DNA of 52,155 nucleotides from Acidobacteriota bacterium (GTDB taxonomy: Bacteria; Acidobacteriota; Vicinamibacteria; Vicinamibacterales; UBA2999). This document shows positions 13,948-48,423 of the stretch, piece after piece. The stretch spans positions 1 through 52,155 of the forward strand of contig JANMUX010000043.1 of the NCBI GenBank assembly GCA_031392125.1, in the 5' to 3' direction. The notes below the pieces were generated by a model. That model searched no databases. It was not told where the DNA came from and was given only the letters and a program-made list of their open reading frames with translations. Made by a program: the position numbers and the translations under genes. The first letter of the stretch is position 1; each line of letters starts with the position of its first letter.

Positions 13948-14811
13948 CTACTTGTATATCTTGGTGAAGTTGATTGACGCGCCGCCCACTTGCGGCTGGA
14001 CGCCCATGTTGAACTTGCTGCCGCCAAGGTTCATCGTCACCGTCCGCGCGGAAGCGATGCCGAGGCCAGCGCCCATCACCACGTCGGTGGCATGGTGGCG
14101 ATTCCAGGCCATGCGGGCCAGGGCGACATACGACCCGAATGCGTAGGCCGGCACTGCAGCCTTCCAGCCGTAATGACGCTGCAGCACGGTGGCGGTGGCG
14201 AACGCGCTGGCCGAGTGGCCGGATGGGAACGACATGTTATTGCTGGCGTCGGGACGCGGACGCCGCACCGTGACCTTGACGCTCTGCACGATTACCTGCG
14301 ACAGAATCTGGGCGCGCACGACATCGCGCCCGACCATCGAGAGCTTCTCGTTGCGAACCAACTTCCCGAACCCGTAACCCGCAAAGCCAGCGCCCGCCTG
14401 GAAGGCGAAGCTGCCCATGATGTTGCCCGATTCGAACAAGGTGGTCGGAATGTTGAAGCCGTTGTTCACGCCTTCCCGATCCCACGGCGCGGCGGCAATG
14501 GCGCCGATCGACGTAAACGCCAACACGCGGACCGTGTCGTGGCTGAAGAAGTGCTTGAAGTCGCCGCCGACGAGCTTGAAGAAGCCGCCTGACTGCACGT
14601 CGCTGGTCGCAGGCGCAATCATGCCGGCCGGCAGGGGCTGACCGGGACGCGGGAACTGCCCCGCGTTCGCTGCCTCGCTGTCCGGGCCGGACGTCGGTTC
14701 GGCAGTCGCTTCGGTGCGCGAGGATTCGGCCGGCGCCGGTTCCTGGGCCCAGGCTGGAGCGGCCAGCGTCAGGGCGGCAACAAACAGGGCGGCAGCACGT
14801 GGCGTATTCAT
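13948..14811 (-). CDS. PAP2-family (acid phosphatase/lipid phosphate phosphatase) protein
   Basis: The three PAP2 motifs are readable: 'KVTVRRPRP', 'PSGHSA' and 'ARMAWNRHHATDV'. ATG at 14811 gives signal peptide 'MNTPRAAALFVAALTLAAPAWAQ'. Confidence 0.8.
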   Translation of the reverse strand: MNTPRAAALFVAALTLAAPAWAQEPAPAESSRTEATAEPTSGPDSEAANAGQFPRPGQPLPAGMIAPATSDVQSGGFFKLVGGDFKHFFSHDTVRVLAFTSIGAIAAAPWDREGVNNGFNIPTTLFESGNIMGSFAFQAGAGFAGYGFGKLVRNEKLSMVGRDVVRAQILSQVIVQSVKVTVRRPRPDASNNMSFPSGHSASAFATATVLQRHYGWKAAVPAYAFGSYVALARMAWNRHHATDVVMGAGLGIASARTVTMNLGGSKFNMGVQPQVGGASINFTKIYK

Positions 14812-14916
14812 CAAGAAAGCCTTCGGTTGAGAGGTCAAAACGGTCCGCAAGTATCGCACGGAATTTACAAGGGCCGGCTCAGTTGGCCCCCTATAGCTAT
14901 CGGCAGGCGGCCGCCC

Positions 14917-25858: not shown

Positions 25859-27628
25859 GTGATTCGCGACCTGCGCACCGTGTTGGGCTGGCTCGCGCCC
25901 CGCGACCGATGGCGGTGGCTGATGCTCGGGCCGCTGGTCACGGTCGGCGCGCTGATCGAGGCCGTTGGCGCGCTGGCCACCTTCGGGCTGCTTCGCCTGG
26001 TCGTCGAACCGGAACAGGTGCGCACGCTGCCGGTGGTGTCACAGATCTGGCGCGCCTGGCCCACCGACGACCCGCGGGCGGTCGTCGCCACGCTCGCACT
26101 TTCCGTCGGCGTGTTTTACCTGGGCCGCGCGCTCTTCCTGTCCTGGGTGGAGTGGGTCCGGCAGGGCATCATCTTCACCTCGTCGTCTGGCGCGGCTGAA
26201 CGGCTGCTGGCGCGGTATCTCGCCGCCGACTACCTGTTCCACGTGAAGCGGAACTCGGCCTCGCTGATTCAGCCGATGACGCGTGCCTCTGACATCGCGT
26301 ACGAGCTGGTTGCGGGTTCGGCGGTCAACATTCTCGCCGAGGCGGTGACGATCGCGGCGCTGGCGTTGGTGCTGCTGTCGTCGGCACCGCCGATCACCCT
26401 CGTCGCGGTGGCAATCGTGCTCGCGGTGGTGCTCGGACCGATCGTCCTGACTCGCCGCGCATGGGAACGGATCGGCGAGACCGAGCGCGCGCTGTTGCAG
26501 CAACAACTCCACGTGCTGCAGCAAAGCCTGGGCGCGATCAAGGATGTCAGGATCTCCGGCCGCCAGCCGTTCTTCGAGGAGCAGTTTCGCGACGTCAAGC
26601 GCAACCTGACGCGCGTGAAACAGCGACGATCGTGGGCCGCGAGCGCTGCCAGGCACGGGGTCGAGACGACCCTCGTCCTGAGCATGTTGCTGGTCGTCTT
26701 TCTCGTCATGCGCGAGGGCGCCTCGAGCAGCGACACTGTCTCGATTCTCGCGCTGTTTGCCTACACCGGCTTTCGGGTCATCCCGTCGGTCAATCGCATC
26801 ATGATGAACGCCGGCTACCTCCGCGAAGCCCACCCATGGGTCGCGAACATGGACGACGACATGCGAGCGCTGAAGGCGCCGTCACCCCGGTCGTTCACGC
26901 CAGAGCCGCCGATGTTGGTCGACTCGCTTGCCTGCGAGGACGTGTCGTTCCGATACGACGACGGCCAGCTCGCGCTTGAGCACGTCTCGCTGACCATCCG
27001 CCGCGGTCAGTCGGTCGGCATAGTCGGCGCCACCGGCGCGGGCAAGACGACGCTCGTTGATGTGCTGCTCGGTCTGCTGACACCCGCGTCCGGACGAGTG
27101 CTGATTGACGGCCAGCCGCTCGAGGGCCGTGAGCGCGCGTGGCAGCGGCAAATTGGCTACGTTCCGCAGGACGTCTACCTGCTGGACGATTCGCTCAGGC
27201 GCAACATCGCATTCGGCATCCCTGACGGCGCGATCGATGAGGCCCGCCTCGCCGCCGCCACTGCATTGGCGCGGCTCGACGGAGTGATCGCCGGATTGCC
27301 TCAGAAGCTCGAGACCGTCGTCGGTGAAGGCGGCGTGCGGCTGTCGGGCGGTCAGCGTCAGCGCGTCGCAATTGCGCGCGCGCTTTACCACGACCCGCCA
27401 GTACTGTTCTTTGACGAGGCGACCGCCGCACTCGACAGTCAGACCGAGCGGGAAGTCACCGAGGCGATTGCCGCCGTCCACGGCACGCGCACAGTGATTG
27501 CAATCGCCCATCGTTTGACGACCGTCAAGGCGTGCGATCAGCTGATCTATCTGAAGGACGGCCGGGTTGCCGGAGCTGGTACATACCAGGAGCTGCTGCA
27601 CGATCCTGGTTTCCGTCAGTTGACGTGA
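25859..27628 (+). CDS. ABC exporter, fused permease/ATPase (MsbA/PglK-like type I exporter)
   Basis: N-terminal 6-TM domain. Walker A 'GATGAGKTT', signature 'LSGGQRQRVAIARAL', Walker B 'VLFFDEATAALD', H-loop 'IAHRL'. GTG start at 25859. Confidence 0.85.
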   Translation: MIRDLRTVLGWLAPRDRWRWLMLGPLVTVGALIEAVGALATFGLLRLVVEPEQVRTLPVVSQIWRAWPTDDPRAVVATLALSVGVFYLGRALFLSWVEWVRQGIIFTSSSGAAERLLARYLAADYLFHVKRNSASLIQPMTRASDIAYELVAGSAVNILAEAVTIAALALVLLSSAPPITLVAVAIVLAVVLGPIVLTRRAWERIGETERALLQQQLHVLQQSLGAIKDVRISGRQPFFEEQFRDVKRNLTRVKQRRSWAASAARHGVETTLVLSMLLVVFLVMREGASSSDTVSILALFAYTGFRVIPSVNRIMMNAGYLREAHPWVANMDDDMRALKAPSPRSFTPEPPMLVDSLACEDVSFRYDDGQLALEHVSLTIRRGQSVGIVGATGAGKTTLVDVLLGLLTPASGRVLIDGQPLEGRERAWQRQIGYVPQDVYLLDDSLRRNIAFGIPDGAIDEARLAAATALARLDGVIAGLPQKLETVVGEGGVRLSGGQRQRVAIARALYHDPPVLFFDEATAALDSQTEREVTEAIAAVHGTRTVIAIAHRLTTVKACDQLIYLKDGRVAGAGTYQELLHDPGFRQLT

Positions 27629-27643
27629 GGTGAAGTCTGCAGG

Positions 27644-28066
27644 CTAGTTGCGGAAGGCGCTCACAATCTCGCGGACCTCGCGCACGAAGCGGTCGGTCGA
27701 AAACATCTCGGCCCGCGCCGCGAGCGAGGTGCGAAGTCGCTGTTGCGCCGCCGGGTCAGCCAGCACCGCGGTAATCCTGGCCGCGCCGTCTTCTTCGGCG
27801 TCGTACATCAGCGCCGGCTCTTGGCCGACAATTTCCACTTGGCCGCCGCCCTTTGGCACCCACACGATGATGCCGGCACGCGCCATCTCGGCGGGCGCCA
27901 TGCCGAAATGCTCTTCACGCATGCCGTGAATGCCGTACCGGTGGGTGCCCATCAACTCGCGCAACTCTTGGCGGCTTACGTCCTGGCGGAACTGAATCCA
28001 TGCGCCGAGCGATCGTGCCTCGGCCTGCAGGCTCTCAAAGTAGCGCCGCGAGGCCGTTGCTGCCAC
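27644..28066 (-). pseudogene. C-terminal fragment of a GT4 glycosyltransferase (ALG11-like)
   Basis: 140-aa ORF 'YGIHGMREEHFGMAPAEMARAGIIVWVPKGGGQVEIVG' carries the GT4 EX7E region and resembles my recollection of Alg11 ('...MWNEHFGIAVVE.MASGLIPIVH..GPLLDIV'). There is no room for the N-terminal Rossmann half: only 39 bp separate it from the upstream gene's stop. Confidence 0.5.
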
Positions 28067-28105
28067 CTGGCGGCTGCAAGGATGGCTGCACCAGCAAGAC
28101 CCGTT

Positions 28106-29092
28106 TCATGGCGTTTGTGCCGTGAAGAATGCCAGCAGCGACAAGATGGCGGTGACGACGTAGAGGATCAGCACCGTGCGCCGCGGGGACCAGCCGAGCG
28201 CCAGCAGGCGATGATGGATGTGCTGCCGATCCGGTTCAACCAGATGCCGGACAGCTGCCGGAATCGACGCCGGTCGAGCGGTCGGCCGCGCCAGGCCTCG
28301 CCGGACAATCGTGGTGACGACGTCGGCAATCGGCAGCGCGAAAATCATCAACGGGACGGCTGTGGCGAGCGCGGTCGCGCCTTTCTGCCAGCCGGCAATC
28401 GCGGTGGTGGCCAGCAGGAACCCGATCATCAAGCTGCCGCTGTCGCCCAGAAAGATCGAGGCCGGCGCGAAGTTGAACACCAGGAAACCAACCGACGCGC
28501 CGACCAGTGCCGTAAGCAACATTGCCTCGGCCGGATGTCCGCGGACCACGAGAATGGCGGCGCAGGTGGTGCCGGCGAGTACGGCGATTCCGGCTGCCAG
28601 GCCATCGATGCCATCGATCAAGTTGAAGGCGTTGGTGAGGCCGACGATCCATCCGGCCGTGATCGGCCAGGCCAGCCAGCCAGGCTCCCACGACACGCCG
28701 AACAGGGTCACGCGCTCAATCAGCAGCCCCGACAGCATCATCACCGTCGCGGCGGCAAACTGCGCGGCCAGCTTCGGCACGGGCCCCACGCCGCGCAGAT
28801 CGTCGAGCAGGCCAATACCGAAAATCAGCGCGCCTGCGGTCGCAAACGGCGACAAGGCGGGCCAGATTGCAGGGGCGAAATCCTCCGGGCCCAGCCAGCG
28901 GACGAGTATCATCGCCAGAATCGTGGCGGCGACGACTGCCACGCCCCCCAACCGCGGCACCGATTGGGCGTGAACCTTCCGGCCTCCAGGGGCGTCGACC
29001 AGTCCGAGCCAGTTCGAGCCTCGCGAGACCAGCGGGGTCATGACCAGGGCAAGAGCCGCACCACAGAAGGCAAGCAGCAGGTAGACCGTCAA
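28106..29092 (-). CDS. polyprenyl-phosphate GlcNAc-1-phosphate transferase family protein (WecA/MraY/ALG7 superfamily)
   Basis: 'LVDAPGGRKVH', 'NAFNLIDGIDGLAAG' and about 10 TM segments. TTG start at 29092 (revcomp of 29090-29092). Confidence 0.8.
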   Translation of the reverse strand: MTVYLLLAFCGAALALVMTPLVSRGSNWLGLVDAPGGRKVHAQSVPRLGGVAVVAATILAMILVRWLGPEDFAPAIWPALSPFATAGALIFGIGLLDDLRGVGPVPKLAAQFAAATVMMLSGLLIERVTLFGVSWEPGWLAWPITAGWIVGLTNAFNLIDGIDGLAAGIAVLAGTTCAAILVVRGHPAEAMLLTALVGASVGFLVFNFAPASIFLGDSGSLMIGFLLATTAIAGWQKGATALATAVPLMIFALPIADVVTTIVRRGLARPTARPASIPAAVRHLVEPDRQHIHHRLLALGWSPRRTVLILYVVTAILSLLAFFTAQTP

Positions 29093-30318
29093 TGCGAACC
29101 GTCGTCATCGTACTCGGAGATCTTGGCCGTAGCCCGCGGATGCAGTATCACGCCGCCTCGCTGGCCGATGCCGGGCACGACGTGGATCTGGTGGGACTTG
29201 AAGGCGCGCCCCCCGTGCCAGCAGTGGCGAACCACCCTCGCATAACCTGTCATCGGCTGTCCGACCGCGCTTTCCAGGGTCGCGCCACCGGCGGCATCAA
29301 GCGATTTGTTGCGGGCTCGCTCCTGCGCGTGCTCGGCCAGGCCCGCCAACTGTTGCTGACGCTGATGCGGCTGCCGAAGGCAGATGTCATCCTCGTTCAG
29401 AATCCGCCCTCGATTCCCGCGTTGGCGGTGGCGTGGCTGGTAACGAGGCTTCGCGGCGGCCGGTTCGTGATCGACTGGCACAACTTGTCGCACACCGTGG
29501 TGGCGATTCGGCTTGGCGAGTCACATCGCGCCGTGAGGGCCGTGGCACGGAGCGAGCGCCGGTGGGCCCGGCGCGCCGATGGGCATCTCGCGGTCTCGAA
29601 GGCGCTTGCGGCTTGGTTGGCGGGCAATTACGGCATCACCACGTCGGTCGTTTACGACCGGCCGCCCTCTCTGTTCACCACCACGGCTCCCTCCTCGGCG
29701 GTCACGCTGTGGAATAAGCTCGCAACCGAAGCATCCCTCGGCGCAGCGCGACTGCCGCTGGTCGTCTGTCCAACCAGTTGGACGCCGGATGAAGATTTCG
29801 ATCTCTTGCTCGAGGCGCTTGAACGCGCCGAGCGCCTGCTCGCGCGCACCGCCGTGGCGCCTTGTCTTGCTGTCGTACTCACCGGTCGCGGCCTTCTTCG
29901 CGCAGGCTTCGAAGCGCGGGCCGCGCGACGTTCGTTCAAGGCGATTGCCCTGCGAACCCACTGGCTCGAGCCAGCCGACTATCCGGTGCTGATCGGCATG
30001 GCCGACCTGGGTCTCTGCCTGCACCAGTCGTCGTCCGGTCTCGACTTGCCGATGAAGGTTGCCGACTTCCGAGGTGCCGGCGTTCCGGTCGCTGCCTTTG
30101 ACTACGCGCCAGTCCTGGGTGAAGTGCTGACCGACAGCCACGAGGGCATCAAGTTTCGCGATCCAGGAGATCTCGCGGGCATATTGGTGTCGGTGGCGTC
30201 GGGGTCGATTGAGCCTGGCTCGACGCTTGGCAAATCGAAGACGTGGTTGCGCGAGCATCCCGCCGAACGATGGGACGAGCAGTGGCAGCACGCCGCCCGG
30301 CAGGTGCTGCTCGGGTAG
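29092..30318 (+). CDS. ALG1-like beta-1,4-mannosyltransferase (GT33 family)
   Basis: Blocks 'VIVLGDLGRSPRMQYHA', 'ILVQNPPSIP', 'VIDWHNL', 'VVYDRPPSLF', 'PTSWTPDEDFDLLLEAL', 'LHQSSSGLDLPMKVADF' and 'PVLGEVLTDSHEGIKF' line up block-for-block with yeast Alg1 as I recall it ('FVLGDVGHSPRICYHA', 'ILVQNPPSIP', 'IIDWHNL', 'VLYDRPASQF', 'STSFTPDEDIGILLGAL', 'LHTSSSGLDLPMKILDM', 'PVLDELVQHNVNGLKF'). Confidence 0.8.
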   Translation: MRTVVIVLGDLGRSPRMQYHAASLADAGHDVDLVGLEGAPPVPAVANHPRITCHRLSDRAFQGRATGGIKRFVAGSLLRVLGQARQLLLTLMRLPKADVILVQNPPSIPALAVAWLVTRLRGGRFVIDWHNLSHTVVAIRLGESHRAVRAVARSERRWARRADGHLAVSKALAAWLAGNYGITTSVVYDRPPSLFTTTAPSSAVTLWNKLATEASLGAARLPLVVCPTSWTPDEDFDLLLEALERAERLLARTAVAPCLAVVLTGRGLLRAGFEARAARRSFKAIALRTHWLEPADYPVLIGMADLGLCLHQSSSGLDLPMKVADFRGAGVPVAAFDYAPVLGEVLTDSHEGIKFRDPGDLAGILVSVASGSIEPGSTLGKSKTWLREHPAERWDEQWQHAARQVLLG

Positions 30319-30338: not shown

Positions 30339-31952
30339 ATGCGCCCCATCACAGAGATTGCCACCCGCCTTGGTTTGACCGACGACTTGCTCGAACCCTA
30401 CGGCCGCGCCATTGCCAAGATTCGCCTCGAAGTGCTCGAGCGTTTTCCGGTGCGCAAGGGCAAGATGATCCTGGTCACCGCCATGACGCCGACCACGAGC
30501 GGCGAGGGCAAGACGGTGAACACCATCGGCATCACCCAAGGGCTCGTCAAGCTGGGACACAACGCGGTGGCCGCGCTGCGCGAGCCGTCGCTCGGACCAG
30601 TGTTCGGGATGAAGGGCGGCGCCACCGGCGGAGGCAAGGCGTCACTCGAGCCGATTGACAAGATCAATCTGCACTTCACCGGCGACTTCCACGCCATCAC
30701 CGCGGCCCACAACCTGCTTGCGGCGCTGCTCGATACGCACCTGCACTTCGGCAACGACCTGCGGATCAATCCACAGGAGATCTTGTGGCCGCGCTGCATG
30801 GACATGAACGACCGGGCATTGCGGCGCATCGCCACGGGGCTGGGCGGGCGCGAGAGCGGCCCGGCGCGCGAGACCGGGTTCGTGATCACGGCCGCGTCCG
30901 AGATCATGGCGATTCTCGCGTTGTCCGACAGCCGCGCCGATCTCCGCCGTCGCCTGTCGCGCATCGTCGTCGGCTTCAACTACGACGGCGCCCCGGTGAC
31001 CGCAGCGGACCTCAAGGCCGTTGGTCCGATGATGGTGTTGCTGAACGAGGCGGTGCTGCCAAACCTCGTGCAGACCACTGAAGGAGCGCCGGCCATCGTG
31101 CATTGTGGGCCGTTTGCCAACATTGCGCACGGCACCAGCAGCGTGCTGGCGCAGCGCATGGGTCTGCATCTCGCGGACTACGTCGTCAACGAAACTGGCT
31201 TCGCTGCCGACCTTGGCGCCGAAAAATTCTTCGACCTGGTGATGCCGATGTGCGGTCACGTGCCGGCGGCGGCAGCCGTGATCGTTACGCTCAAAGCGCT
31301 GCGGGCACAGGGCGGCGCCGCCGATGGCCCGGTGGCGGCCGGCTTTCCGAACTTGCTGCGTCACCTCGAGAACTTGAAGCGATGGGGGGTGCCCGCCGTG
31401 ATCGCGCTCAACCGCTTCCCGGCTGACACCACGGCCGATCTCGATGAAGTAATGAGCTATTGCCGATCGATTGGCGCCGACGTGGCACTGGCTGACGGCT
31501 ATACCAAGGGCGGCGACGGCATGATTGAGCTGGCTGGTAAGCTCGTGACCGCGGCGGCCGGGTCCGATCCGGCGGCCGTCCTGCCGACCTACACGGCCGA
31601 CCAGCCGCTCGAAGAAAAAATCAAGGTCGTGGCGACCAAGGTCTACGGCGCGGCAGGCGTGTCTTTCAAGCCCGCGGCGAAGTCGCGTCTCGCGAAGCTC
31701 GAGACCCTCGGCTATGGCGCGTTACCCGTGTGCATAGCCAAGACTCAGTACTCGTTCACCGACGACCCAAAGCAAATGGGCGCGCCATCGGGATGGACGC
31801 TGACCGTGAATGAGGTGTCGCTGTCTGCCGGCGCGGGTTTCGTCGTGGCGATTGCCGGCAGCATGATGCTGATGCCCGGTCTCGGCAAAGTGCCGCAAGC
31901 CCAGAAGCTGGACGTAGACGAGCACGGAGCAGTCATCGGCATGGATTATTGA
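30339..31952 (+). CDS. fhs: formate--tetrahydrofolate ligase
   Basis: 'LVTAMTPTTSGEGKTVNTIGITQGL' P-loop region, 'EPSLGPVFGMKGGATGGG', 'PVCIAKTQYSFTDDP'. Length is 537 aa. Confidence 0.9.
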   Translation: MRPITEIATRLGLTDDLLEPYGRAIAKIRLEVLERFPVRKGKMILVTAMTPTTSGEGKTVNTIGITQGLVKLGHNAVAALREPSLGPVFGMKGGATGGGKASLEPIDKINLHFTGDFHAITAAHNLLAALLDTHLHFGNDLRINPQEILWPRCMDMNDRALRRIATGLGGRESGPARETGFVITAASEIMAILALSDSRADLRRRLSRIVVGFNYDGAPVTAADLKAVGPMMVLLNEAVLPNLVQTTEGAPAIVHCGPFANIAHGTSSVLAQRMGLHLADYVVNETGFAADLGAEKFFDLVMPMCGHVPAAAAVIVTLKALRAQGGAADGPVAAGFPNLLRHLENLKRWGVPAVIALNRFPADTTADLDEVMSYCRSIGADVALADGYTKGGDGMIELAGKLVTAAAGSDPAAVLPTYTADQPLEEKIKVVATKVYGAAGVSFKPAAKSRLAKLETLGYGALPVCIAKTQYSFTDDPKQMGAPSGWTLTVNEVSLSAGAGFVVAIAGSMMLMPGLGKVPQAQKLDVDEHGAVIGMDY

Positions 31953-47286: not shown

Positions 47287-48423
47287 ATGATCAGCGTAGC
47301 CGCTATCCGGATGCAGCAGTTCGGCGTGCAATTCTATCAGGCCTCTCTCACGGCCAGTGATATCGACAAGCTCGTGCGTTTCGAGGTGTTGAGCTACCAG
47401 GACCAGGGGCAAGCGGGCGTTCGCGGAAAGAAGAAAGCCGCCCAGTCCAAGATCAACTGGGACCTGCTCGAGCGGCGAATCGCCTCGAACGAGAAGGCGT
47501 ACCAGCGACAGATCATCCGCAAGAAGATTGATGAACTGGTCCAGTATTACGAACAGTGCCGACAGGCCCGCGACCTGCCATCAATTCCTGGCGCGGTGAT
47601 CATTTCCTGTGATGAGAAGCTGAGCTTCGAGGCGGTGGAGAGCGGCTCATCCGTGGGCCGCTTGAAGGTCCCCGAACGTGAAGGCATCCTGCGCGCTATC
47701 GACGGCCAGCACCGGTTGCTTGCCCTGCACGCCGACATCGATCGGTTTGGCGACGAGCCCTTCACGGTGCCCGCGATCATTTTCGACCGCGTGCCCGAAG
47801 ATCACATCGTGCAGATGTTCGTCACCATCAATGCGAAGCACACTCGCCTGAACGCGTCGCACCTGGTCTCGTTGTCGGGACGCCAGCTCTATCGCGACGA
47901 ATCGCTGGCGGCAGCGCACGACGTCGTGCGCGCATTGAATGACCGCGATGAATCGCCACTGTTTGGCGAGATCAAGCTGCTCGGCGTCGGCAAGGGCCGC
48001 GTCGGCCAGGCGCCGCTCGCGCAGGAACTCAAGAAGCTGTTCTCGGATGAGGCGGCACTGGGTGGCGCCCGCAAGAGCGCGGAGTTCCGTGAGGAGTCGA
48101 AGAAGTTCTTCGTCAATTACCTCAAGCAGATCGCCAGCATTTTCGAATCGGCATGGAACGGCCGGAAGTACAGCATCAAGTCGGCCACCGCCTTGCGCGC
48201 ATTCATCCGCGTGGCCCCTGATGTGATCCAGAAGATCGACCAGCTGCACGCGGACCGCACTGACTTCCGCGCCATTGGCCGCGTGATTTCGCCGTGGGGC
48301 CGCCGCATCGGCGCGCTGCGCTTCGAAACCGACGGTGCCTGGAAGCGCCAGGGGACGACGGTCGACAATCTCACCAAGGAACTGCGCCTGGCGCTGCAGT
48401 ACCCCGAAGGTGCGGCCGGTTAA
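47287..48423 (+). CDS. DGQHR-domain protein (DndB-like, ParB/Srx-fold superfamily)
   Basis: Literal 'AIDGQHRLLAL' motif followed by 'QMFVTINAKHTRL'. The N-terminal 'FYQASLTASDI' and the length (378 aa) fit DndB/DpdB-type DGQHR proteins. Confidence 0.75.
   Translation: MISVAAIRMQQFGVQFYQASLTASDIDKLVRFEVLSYQDQGQAGVRGKKKAAQSKINWDLLERRIASNEKAYQRQIIRKKIDELVQYYEQCRQARDLPSIPGAVIISCDEKLSFEAVESGSSVGRLKVPEREGILRAIDGQHRLLALHADIDRFGDEPFTVPAIIFDRVPEDHIVQMFVTINAKHTRLNASHLVSLSGRQLYRDESLAAAHDVVRALNDRDESPLFGEIKLLGVGKGRVGQAPLAQELKKLFSDEAALGGARKSAEFREESKKFFVNYLKQIASIFESAWNGRKYSIKSATALRAFIRVAPDVIQKIDQLHADRTDFRAIGRVISPWGRRIGALRFETDGAWKRQGTTVDNLTKELRLALQYPEGAAG

Follow-up and report, generated by a model that had tools for sequence, protein, structure and literature searches.

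The main phylogenomic analysis of N-glycosylation left unplaced the eukaryotic mannosyltransferase Alg1 (EC 2.4.1.142, CAZy family GT33), whose origin it considered unknown and possibly a eukaryotic innovation (Lombard 2016, PMC4973528). Since then, Xu et al. (October 2025, bioRxiv 10.1101/2025.10.15.682550) have reported 204 homologues of ALG1 from bacteria, but none from archaea that was reliable. The homologues from Gammaproteobacteria, Polyangia and Binatia (GaALG1, PoALG1 and BiALG1) complemented a yeast alg1-delta mutant and made Man-GlcNAc2-PP-phytanyl from GlcNAc2-PP-phytanyl, that is, they displayed beta-1,4-mannosyltransferase activity, while homologues from Deltaproteobacteria and Methylomirabilota were inactive; on the basis of sequence and enzymology, the authors argue for a bacterial origin of Alg1 (bioRxiv 10.1101/2025.10.15.682550). 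The main text of this preprint mentions neither Acidobacteria nor operons, gene clusters or genomic context, and literature searches on the gene-cluster context of bacterial ALG1, on N-glycosylation in Acidobacteria and on GT33 in Acidobacteria returned nothing relevant. Here we describe an ALG1-like gene carried by a 52-kb stretch of DNA (the window) from a soil acidobacterium of the Vicinamibacterales type, where it belongs to a glycan locus at positions 25859-30318. As Alg1 relatives of bacteria, and their activity, are already known, this gene is an additional member of the family, found in a reduced locus.

Judged by its sequence, the 408-amino acid (aa) product of this gene is a homologue of the Alg1/GT33 family rather than a case of generic GT-B similarity. 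A yeast Alg1-like sequence was used as a query only, and retrieved the real S. cerevisiae protein (P0121) at 99% identity as well as many proteins named by their source as chitobiosyldiphosphodolichol beta-mannosyltransferase. In BLASTP comparisons, residues 2-403 of the window protein align with residues 40-443 of S. cerevisiae Alg1 (32% identity, E=3e-67). The matches to a Wickerhamomyces protein named 'glycosyltransferase family 33 protein' by its source (34% identity, E=5e-73) and to the Alg1s of Paulinella, Tigriopus and Geranomyces (36-39% identity, E=1e-78 to 1e-83) are equally clear, whereas none of four GT4 enzymes of related clusters gave a match better than E=6. An earlier note on this DNA had claimed, block by block, a resemblance to yeast Alg1 well beyond generic GT-B similarity, and this is borne out: in an alignment of 13 yeast and 13 bacterial sequences, every one of the blocks it named is aligned (VLGDxGxSPR.xYHA, LVQNPPSIP, IDWHNL, YDRP, TS(W/F)TPDED, LHxSSSGLDLPMK and PVL.E....G). 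Across 38 other members of the family, bacterial and eukaryotic, 43 alignment columns show a conservation of at least 90%, and the protein carries the consensus residue at all 43 of them.

When 1.84 billion representatives were searched exhaustively with HMMER, 3,368 related clusters at 50% identity were obtained, 871 of them at E<=1e-30, and named fungal, animal and rhizarian Alg1s are found among the top 150 matches. With a family of this size and three active bacterial enzymes (bioRxiv 10.1101/2025.10.15.682550), the description of bacterial members as rare and uncharacterised in the earlier note has to be abandoned. Many close homologues are named 'beta-1,4-mannosyltransferase' by JGI, and the fungal relative P0188 bears the source name 'glycosyltransferase family 33 protein'. 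Pfam provides only generic GT4-like N-terminal domains for the window protein; it contains no GT33-specific model, and yeast Alg1 itself matches generic Pfam families only. No NCBIfam model matches the protein, and a PDB sequence search found no relative at E<=1, so that a solved Alg1 structure is lacking for comparison. The AlphaFold model (pLDDT 87.9, pTM 0.84) shows a GT-B fold with two Rossmann-like domains, and its top Foldseek matches, BshA, MshA, PimA and PglA, are all GT-B enzymes.

The phylogeny that the earlier note had proposed was built by neighbour joining (405 columns, 100 bootstraps), a distance method that leaves the deep order and backbone of the tree not resolved. The Alg1 family, bacteria and eukaryotes together, separates from the GT4 outgroups on a long branch with 100% bootstrap support. 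The window protein falls in a 100%-supported clade (clade A) lying within a broad bacterial radiation, and made up of its closest relatives, at 51-89% identity, which come from Acidobacteriota metagenome-assembled genomes (MAGs), mostly Vicinamibacterales. More distant relatives at 38-48% identity (clade B) belong to Binatia, Methylomirabilota/Rokubacteria, Deltaproteobacteria, Polyangia, Verrucomicrobiia, Phycisphaeraceae and some other Vicinamibacteria; homologues are also listed from Phycisphaerae. All these bacterial relatives are MAGs. Eukaryotes form one clade with 78% support, which is not sister to clade A. Several MAGs labelled as cyanobacterium, Acidimicrobiia, Bifidobacteriaceae or Microthrixaceae (L012, L015, L017, L020, L023, L026, L048 and L055) show Vicinamibacterales synteny at 60-68% identity; their taxon labels are probably wrong, or the bins contaminated.

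Comparison with eukaryotic Alg1 shows an end-to-end alignment at 32-39% identity, shared TSWTPDEDF and LHxSSSGLDLPMK blocks, the same GT-B fold and a similar length once the membrane anchor is subtracted. This N-terminal transmembrane anchor is the main difference between the two proteins: the window protein begins directly at the VLGD block and its maximal 19-residue hydropathy is 1.53, against 2.57 in the anchor of yeast Alg1. Bacterial family members in general are devoid of it. The lipid carrier is presumably undecaprenyl and not dolichyl. GaALG1, PoALG1 and BiALG1 belong to the same family as the window protein, and the phyla of the preprint, Binatia, Polyangia, Deltaproteobacteria and Methylomirabilota, recur in clade B with loci at 40-48% identity to the window protein, whereas the window protein stands in a separate Acidobacteriota clade. 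We predict that it is an inverting beta-mannosyltransferase whose acceptor is a polyprenyl diphosphate ending in GlcNAc; because the two other bacterial homologues of the preprint were inactive, this activity cannot be assumed.

The gene call found in the database (392 aa) starts at Met17, so that window positions 29092-29139 are cut off and the conserved VLGDLGRSPR block is lost. The same Met17 start is present in many clade-A database calls (P0001, P0002, P0007 and others). It is a systematic start-site error; the removed block aligns with yeast Alg1. Some longer family representatives have the ALG1 domain at one end (P0266, 719 aa; P0313, 750 aa; P0363, 798 aa; P0295, 876 aa). In the clade-B Rokubacteria locus L073, a 305-aa extension upstream of ALG1 was considered as a fused N-terminal domain and rejected, having no Pfam match and being the antisense shadow of a GT28 gene; the longer representatives may be true fusions or gene-call artefacts of this kind.

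All four open reading frames (ORFs) that the earlier note had listed for the locus were found in place, and the gene content of the region is as follows:

25859-27628, plus strand: ABC half-transporter (ABC_membrane and ABC_tran, Pfam), 589 aa, with a transmembrane and a nucleotide-binding domain
27644-28066, minus strand: GT4 C-terminal remnant ORF, 140 aa, part of a pseudogene, with the EX7E motif EHFGMAPAE
28035-28109, minus strand: GT4 N-terminal stub of the same pseudogene in another frame, found by three-frame translation
28106-29092, minus strand: WecA-type polyprenyl-phosphate HexNAc-1-P transferase, 328 aa (Pfam PF00953)
29092-30318, plus strand: ALG1-like (GT33-family) GT-B glycosyltransferase, 408 aa (BLASTP to yeast Alg1)
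30339-31952, downstream of the ALG1-like gene: formate-tetrahydrofolate ligase (FTHFS)

The head-to-head arrangement of the ALG1-like gene with a polyprenyl-phosphate transferase is confirmed: on the minus strand the WecA-like gene starts with TTG, on the plus strand the ALG1-like gene with ATG, and the two start codons share 1 nt within window positions 29090-29094. As there is no intergenic region between them, the promoter of each gene must sit inside the other. The relatives present the same tight divergent pairing of WecA and ALG1, with gaps of 0-50 bp. On the other side of the locus, the ABC half-transporter gene is convergent with the GT4 remnant, and genes for an SRPBCC protein, a MATE transporter and a PNT transhydrogenase are found further upstream.

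The 328-aa protein matches PF00953 with E=3e-39 (135 bits against a cut-off of 27) and is most likely an initiating GlcNAc-1-P transferase of the WecA/MraY superfamily, its sugar being predicted from family membership and from the HIHH motif, which it carries together with NLIDGIDGL. HIHH is implicated in the recognition of UDP-GlcNAc in E. coli WecA. The two enzymes share PF00953 and the DxPxxRKxH-like, NxxDGxDGL and HIHH motifs; the window enzyme differs in having only 328 aa, a sugar specificity that is predicted, and a score of 123 bits with its best NCBIfam model, TIGR02380 (ECA_wecA), under the 326-bit cut-off. Of the WecA/ALG7-type label given by the earlier note, the first half stands and the second does not: the best solved relatives of the protein are bacterial MraY structures (E=1e-13) and no eukaryotic GPT/Alg7 chain was matched at E<=1e-3 in the PDB sequence search, and the protein is for this reason read as bacterial-type rather than Alg7-like.

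Our results place the ABC protein among the half-transporters of the type IV exporter class, in agreement with the PglK/MsbA architecture attributed to it. Its best full-length match among solved half-transporters is C. jejuni PglK/WlaB (5c73, 6hrc; E=1e-63, residues 79-570 against 75-560). With the NCBIfam models it scores 279 bits for HepA, 268 for MsbA and 235 for PglK (NF050066), all far under the cut-offs, which for PglK is 1000 bits. Its linkage with glycan genes supports a role as candidate flippase of a lipid-linked glycan.

The third partner is dead in the window. The 140-aa ORF is a fragment of a GT-B C-terminal domain (PF00534, covering profile positions 59-166 of 172) and matches the C-terminal third (residues 251-383) of an intact 383-aa GT4 enzyme of the clade-A locus L001 (hereafter GT383) with 73% identity in BLASTP; by blastn, window 27639-28045 maps to L001 7814-8220. 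The stub at 28035..28109 (minus strand) reads MKRVLLVQPSLQPPGGSNGLAALL and then a stop, and corresponds to the first 24 residues of the orthologue that is intact, MKRVLLVQPSMQPPGGSNGVAAWV. Its ATG overlaps the stop codon of the WecA gene (ATGA), and its frame differs from that of the C-terminal remnant. Compared with L007-type loci, which have the 383-aa gene only, about 683 bp are missing internally; this number is not a multiple of three, and GT383 is thus a frameshifted pseudogene in the window. The remnant has a nonsynonymous to synonymous substitution ratio (dN/dS) of 0.23, with both dN and dS raised.

In L001, the closest relative (89% identity), two GT4 genes coding for 383 and 376 aa come after the WecA gene, and the window was first read as missing both of them. 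This reading was rejected, the remnant being closer at the nucleotide level to the L007 (81%) and L046 (80%) types, which never have a second GT4, than to L001 (76%). For the WecA, ALG1 and ABC genes on its flanks the reverse is true, with 85-87% identity to L001 and 78-80% to L007. These values suggest a mosaic GT4 region in L001, and a history of the segment different from that of its flanks, either because the L001 lineage recombined or because decay was faster in the window. The only certain lesion is the one internal deletion.

The earlier note had seen an ALG11-like remnant here. That it is a glycosyltransferase remnant holds; its likeness to Alg11 finds no support. The intact 383-aa GT4 matches only the generic families PF00534, PF13692 and PF20706, with no ALG11_N match at E<=0.01 in Pfam, its best PDB relative is a sucrose-phosphate synthase (E=1.5e-5), and its homologues are named by their sources only as 'glycosyltransferase involved in cell wall biosynthesis'. 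As far as Pfam domains, names and motifs allow it to be judged, GT383 appears to be a divergent generic GT4 and nothing supports an Alg11 identity.

The genomic setting of ALG1 was compared across 39 clade-A loci, the window included, and 12 clade-B loci, all with adequate flanks, by counting the genes found within 10 kb of ALG1:

WecA: clade A 34/39, clade B 7/12
ABC exporter: clade A 35/39, clade B 11/12
GT383, intact: clade A 32/39, clade B 5/12 (GT383-like)
GT383, partial: clade A 4/39, clade B 0/12
GT376 paralogue: clade A 10/39, clade B 0/12
MurG-like GT28: clade A 0/39, clade B 12/12
STT3-family oligosaccharyltransferase: clade A 0/39, clade B 10/12
ALG2-like GT4: clade A 0/39, clade B 8/12

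In clade B, the GT28 (PF03033 and PF04101) lies head to head with ALG1, and the STT3-family enzymes (PF02516) have an AglB or PglB core. The ALG2-like GT4 displays EHFGLVPLEAM and an N-terminal GIGGAERL loop, which we take to be ALG2 signatures. They are also described as such by Xu et al. (bioRxiv 10.1101/2025.10.15.682550). Full gene sets are present at L080:393-11245, L073:5005-14965 and L081:5938-15489, and the full-set loci come from Vicinamibacteria (also L082 and L085), Rokubacteria/Methylomirabilota, Deltaproteobacteria, Binatia and Verrucomicrobiia. By their gene content, these sets resemble the cytosolic part of the lipid-linked oligosaccharide pathway of eukaryotes, accompanied by a transferase. 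In the Vicinamibacteria locus L080 the order is ALG2-like (minus), ABC (plus), GT383-like (minus), STT3/AglB (minus), WecA (minus), GT28 (minus) and ALG1 (plus), and the window locus is colinear with it, minus the ALG2-like, STT3 and GT28 genes. As far as can be read from gene content, the eukaryote-like pathway is thus only partly present in the window locus and complete in loci of more distant relatives.

Variation is also seen within clade A. Only about a quarter of the loci have an additional GT4 gene, GT376 (about 40% identical to GT383), which separates GT383 from the ABC exporter gene, at L001:6687-7817 and likewise in L004, L013, L015-L017, L019, L027, L029, L037, L044, L045 and L048; this accessory paralogue suggests that members of the order differ in the length or composition of their glycan. 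GT383 was lost or fragmented independently also in L012, L033-L035 and L055, and some of the partial GT383 matches, found in long-read MAGs, may be artefacts of indels. At L022:7202-11224, the ABC, WecA and ALG1 genes are kept with no GT4, the ABC gene directly abutting WecA.

Taken together, these data make it probable that the window carries a conserved four-gene module (WecA, ALG1, GT4 and ABC) for the assembly and flipping of a short polyprenol-linked glycan. The WecA-type enzyme would put HexNAc-1-P, most likely GlcNAc-1-P, on undecaprenyl phosphate at the cytoplasmic face of the membrane. The soluble or peripheral ALG1-like enzyme would then add a beta-mannose from GDP-mannose to the GlcNAc-terminated lipid diphosphate, an activity proposed on account of the full conservation of the family residues and of the three characterised bacterial homologues. 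In relatives, the retaining GT4 enzyme GT383, sometimes with GT376, would extend the glycan; as GT383 is dead in the window genome, a shorter product is expected there. The PglK-like half-transporter would finally flip the product to the periplasmic face. The logic of such a module, with an initiator, cytoplasmic GT-B enzymes, an ABC flippase and an undecaprenyl-diphosphate carrier, is that of the C. jejuni pgl locus (PglC, PglA, PglJ, PglH, PglI, PglK and PglB). In contrast to the pgl locus, the window has a WecA/MraY-type initiator (PF00953) and not a PglC-type one, uses a GT33 enzyme, has no PglB/STT3 at the locus, and possesses an exporter reaching 235 of the 1000 bits set by the curated PglK model.

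The gene order suggests that the module derives, by trimming, from a larger, L080-like locus. We consider it possible, though only tentatively, that it is what remains of a eukaryote-like operon for N-glycosylation in bacteria, one that we did not find described in the literature. Such an operon has genes for a WecA-type initiator, a MurG/Alg13-14-like GT28, ALG1, an ALG2 homologue (EHFGLVPLEAM), one more GT4, an STT3/AglB transferase and a PglK-like flippase, and it is intact in sister Vicinamibacteria as well as in Methylomirabilota, Binatia, Deltaproteobacteria and Verrucomicrobiia.

Several observations weigh against the proposed four-gene module for glycan assembly and flipping. No enzyme that makes a chitobiose acceptor is encoded in the window or in the 39 clade-A loci, GT28 being found in none of them (0/39), and the acceptor may be GlcNAc-PP-lipid or a chitobiose made by an enzyme encoded elsewhere. 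The GlcNAc2-Man glycan proposed by the earlier note likewise finds no support, as no second-GlcNAc transferase, ALG2 homologue or oligosaccharyltransferase was detected in the window or in these 39 loci; the linked chitobiose-forming enzyme and the Alg2/Alg11 partners of eukaryotic Alg1 are lacking, as are the GT28, ALG2-like and STT3 genes of clade B. The Pfam scan of the remaining ORFs revealed no further glycosyltransferase or oligosaccharyltransferase in the rest of the 52-kb window, and tblastn with three bacterial STT3-family queries gave no STT3 match in the window or any clade-A locus. No oligosaccharyltransferase, ligase or polymerase is linked to the module, and the glycan may either go to protein via an oligosaccharyltransferase encoded elsewhere or to another envelope glycoconjugate. 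The curated models do not assign the ABC exporter to PglK, MsbA or HepA. The loss of GT383 could be the sign of a decay of the whole module. The derivation from a larger locus draws mainly on colinearity, since the deep branching order of the neighbour-joining tree is not resolved, and the function of the clade-A module is predicted from sequence comparisons among MAGs.

Among the other explanations, the one that survives best is that the locus is part of a working eukaryote-like N-glycosylation system whose GT28, ALG2 homologue and STT3/AglB are encoded elsewhere in the genome. The clade-B relatives, including the Vicinamibacteria loci L080, L082 and L085, hold all these genes beside ALG1, and the ALG1 of the window keeps every conserved residue. 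However, none of these genes occurs in the 52-kb window or within 10 kb of ALG1 in the 39 clade-A loci, and no assembly gave both a clade-A and a clade-B copy in a scan that covered loci rather than whole genomes. We therefore regard a pathway dispersed in this way as unlikely, without dismissing it.

A module that is non-functional and decaying, the loss of GT383 being the first visible step and the other genes relics, is more improbable. The frameshift in GT383 speaks in its favour, and so do the loci in which GT383 is missing or partial or in which WecA or the ABC gene is lost (L012, L022, L035, L043, L047, L050, L051 and L055); some of the partial matches, however, come from long-read MAGs, where indels can fragment genes. 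ALG1, WecA and ABC are all full-length in the window and show dN/dS values of 0.15, 0.21 and 0.13, respectively, against L001 (range 0.13-0.21, at a dS of about 0.4-0.5), as expected of purifying selection, and the family-conserved residues of ALG1 are all intact. In addition, L022 retains intact ABC, WecA and ALG1 genes without GT383, so that a three-gene core appears to be viable.

A recent horizontal acquisition from a eukaryote or an archaeon, which the earlier note had raised, is very improbable. It could be suspected from the strong similarity to eukaryotic Alg1 and from the fact that all cellular relatives are uncultured MAGs. The window protein nevertheless lies inside its 100%-supported Acidobacteriota clade, homologues are spread over Acidobacteriota, Methylomirabilota/Rokubacteria, Binatia, Deltaproteobacteria, Polyangia, Verrucomicrobiia and Phycisphaerae, and the single eukaryotic clade is not sister to clade A. 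The G+C content of the locus is even, at 0.65-0.67, like the rest of the window, and the codon-position G+C of all four ORFs is typical of the genome. Synteny with the housekeeping genes (FTHFS, MATE and PNT) is kept across the order at 60-89% identity. An archaeal source is further disfavoured by the absence of a reliable archaeal homologue in the preprint (bioRxiv 10.1101/2025.10.15.682550). The tree, the uniform composition and the conserved synteny thus leave a recent eukaryote-to-bacterium transfer unsupported. Weakest of all, an ordinary bacterial GT4/GT-B enzyme with a superficial Alg1 resemblance, to which generic Pfam domains, the lack of an NCBIfam model and PDB structural neighbours of the GT4/GT5 type (12-15% identity) might point, is already refuted at the sequence level and retains next to no credit, because yeast Alg1 is itself matched by generic Pfam families only, the PDB holds no sequence relative at E<=1, eukaryotic Alg1s match at E=1e-66 to 1e-83 against E>5 for co-located GT4s and stand in the top 150, the GT4s are split off at 100% bootstrap, and 43 of 43 conserved columns agree.

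Outside the locus, a PAP2-family phosphatase is encoded at window 13948-14859, about 14 kb away, adjoining an Omp85-family protein and two ORFs without Pfam match; this candidate undecaprenyl-diphosphate phosphatase is unlinked to the module in the relatives. A DndB-like ORF (PF14072, DNA-sulfur modification-associated) is found at window 47287-48423, in a stretch of lower G+C content (0.587 at 46-48 kb, about 0.64 elsewhere).

The window adds the abundant soil lineage Vicinamibacterales to the Alg1 family, and its relatives show that the ALG1 genes of bacteria belong to loci for polyprenol-linked glycans. Of most interest is a result from beyond the window, the complete eukaryote-like operon of the clade-B relatives, for which no describing paper was found: in several phyla, the entire cytosolic half of the pathway known from eukaryotes is encoded at one locus with an STT3-type transferase, as concrete operons. 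The window itself is a reduced and partly decayed version, useful as part of a natural knock-out series through its GT383 pseudogene and the lack of GT28 and oligosaccharyltransferase at the locus. If the module is indeed a trimmed form of such an operon, soil bacteria would build a Man(1-3)GlcNAc2-type N-glycan core, the cytosolic steps of eukaryotes (Alg13/14, Alg1 and Alg2) could derive jointly from an operon of this kind and not gene by gene, and clade A would show how the pathway was dismantled or re-purposed after the loss of its transferase.

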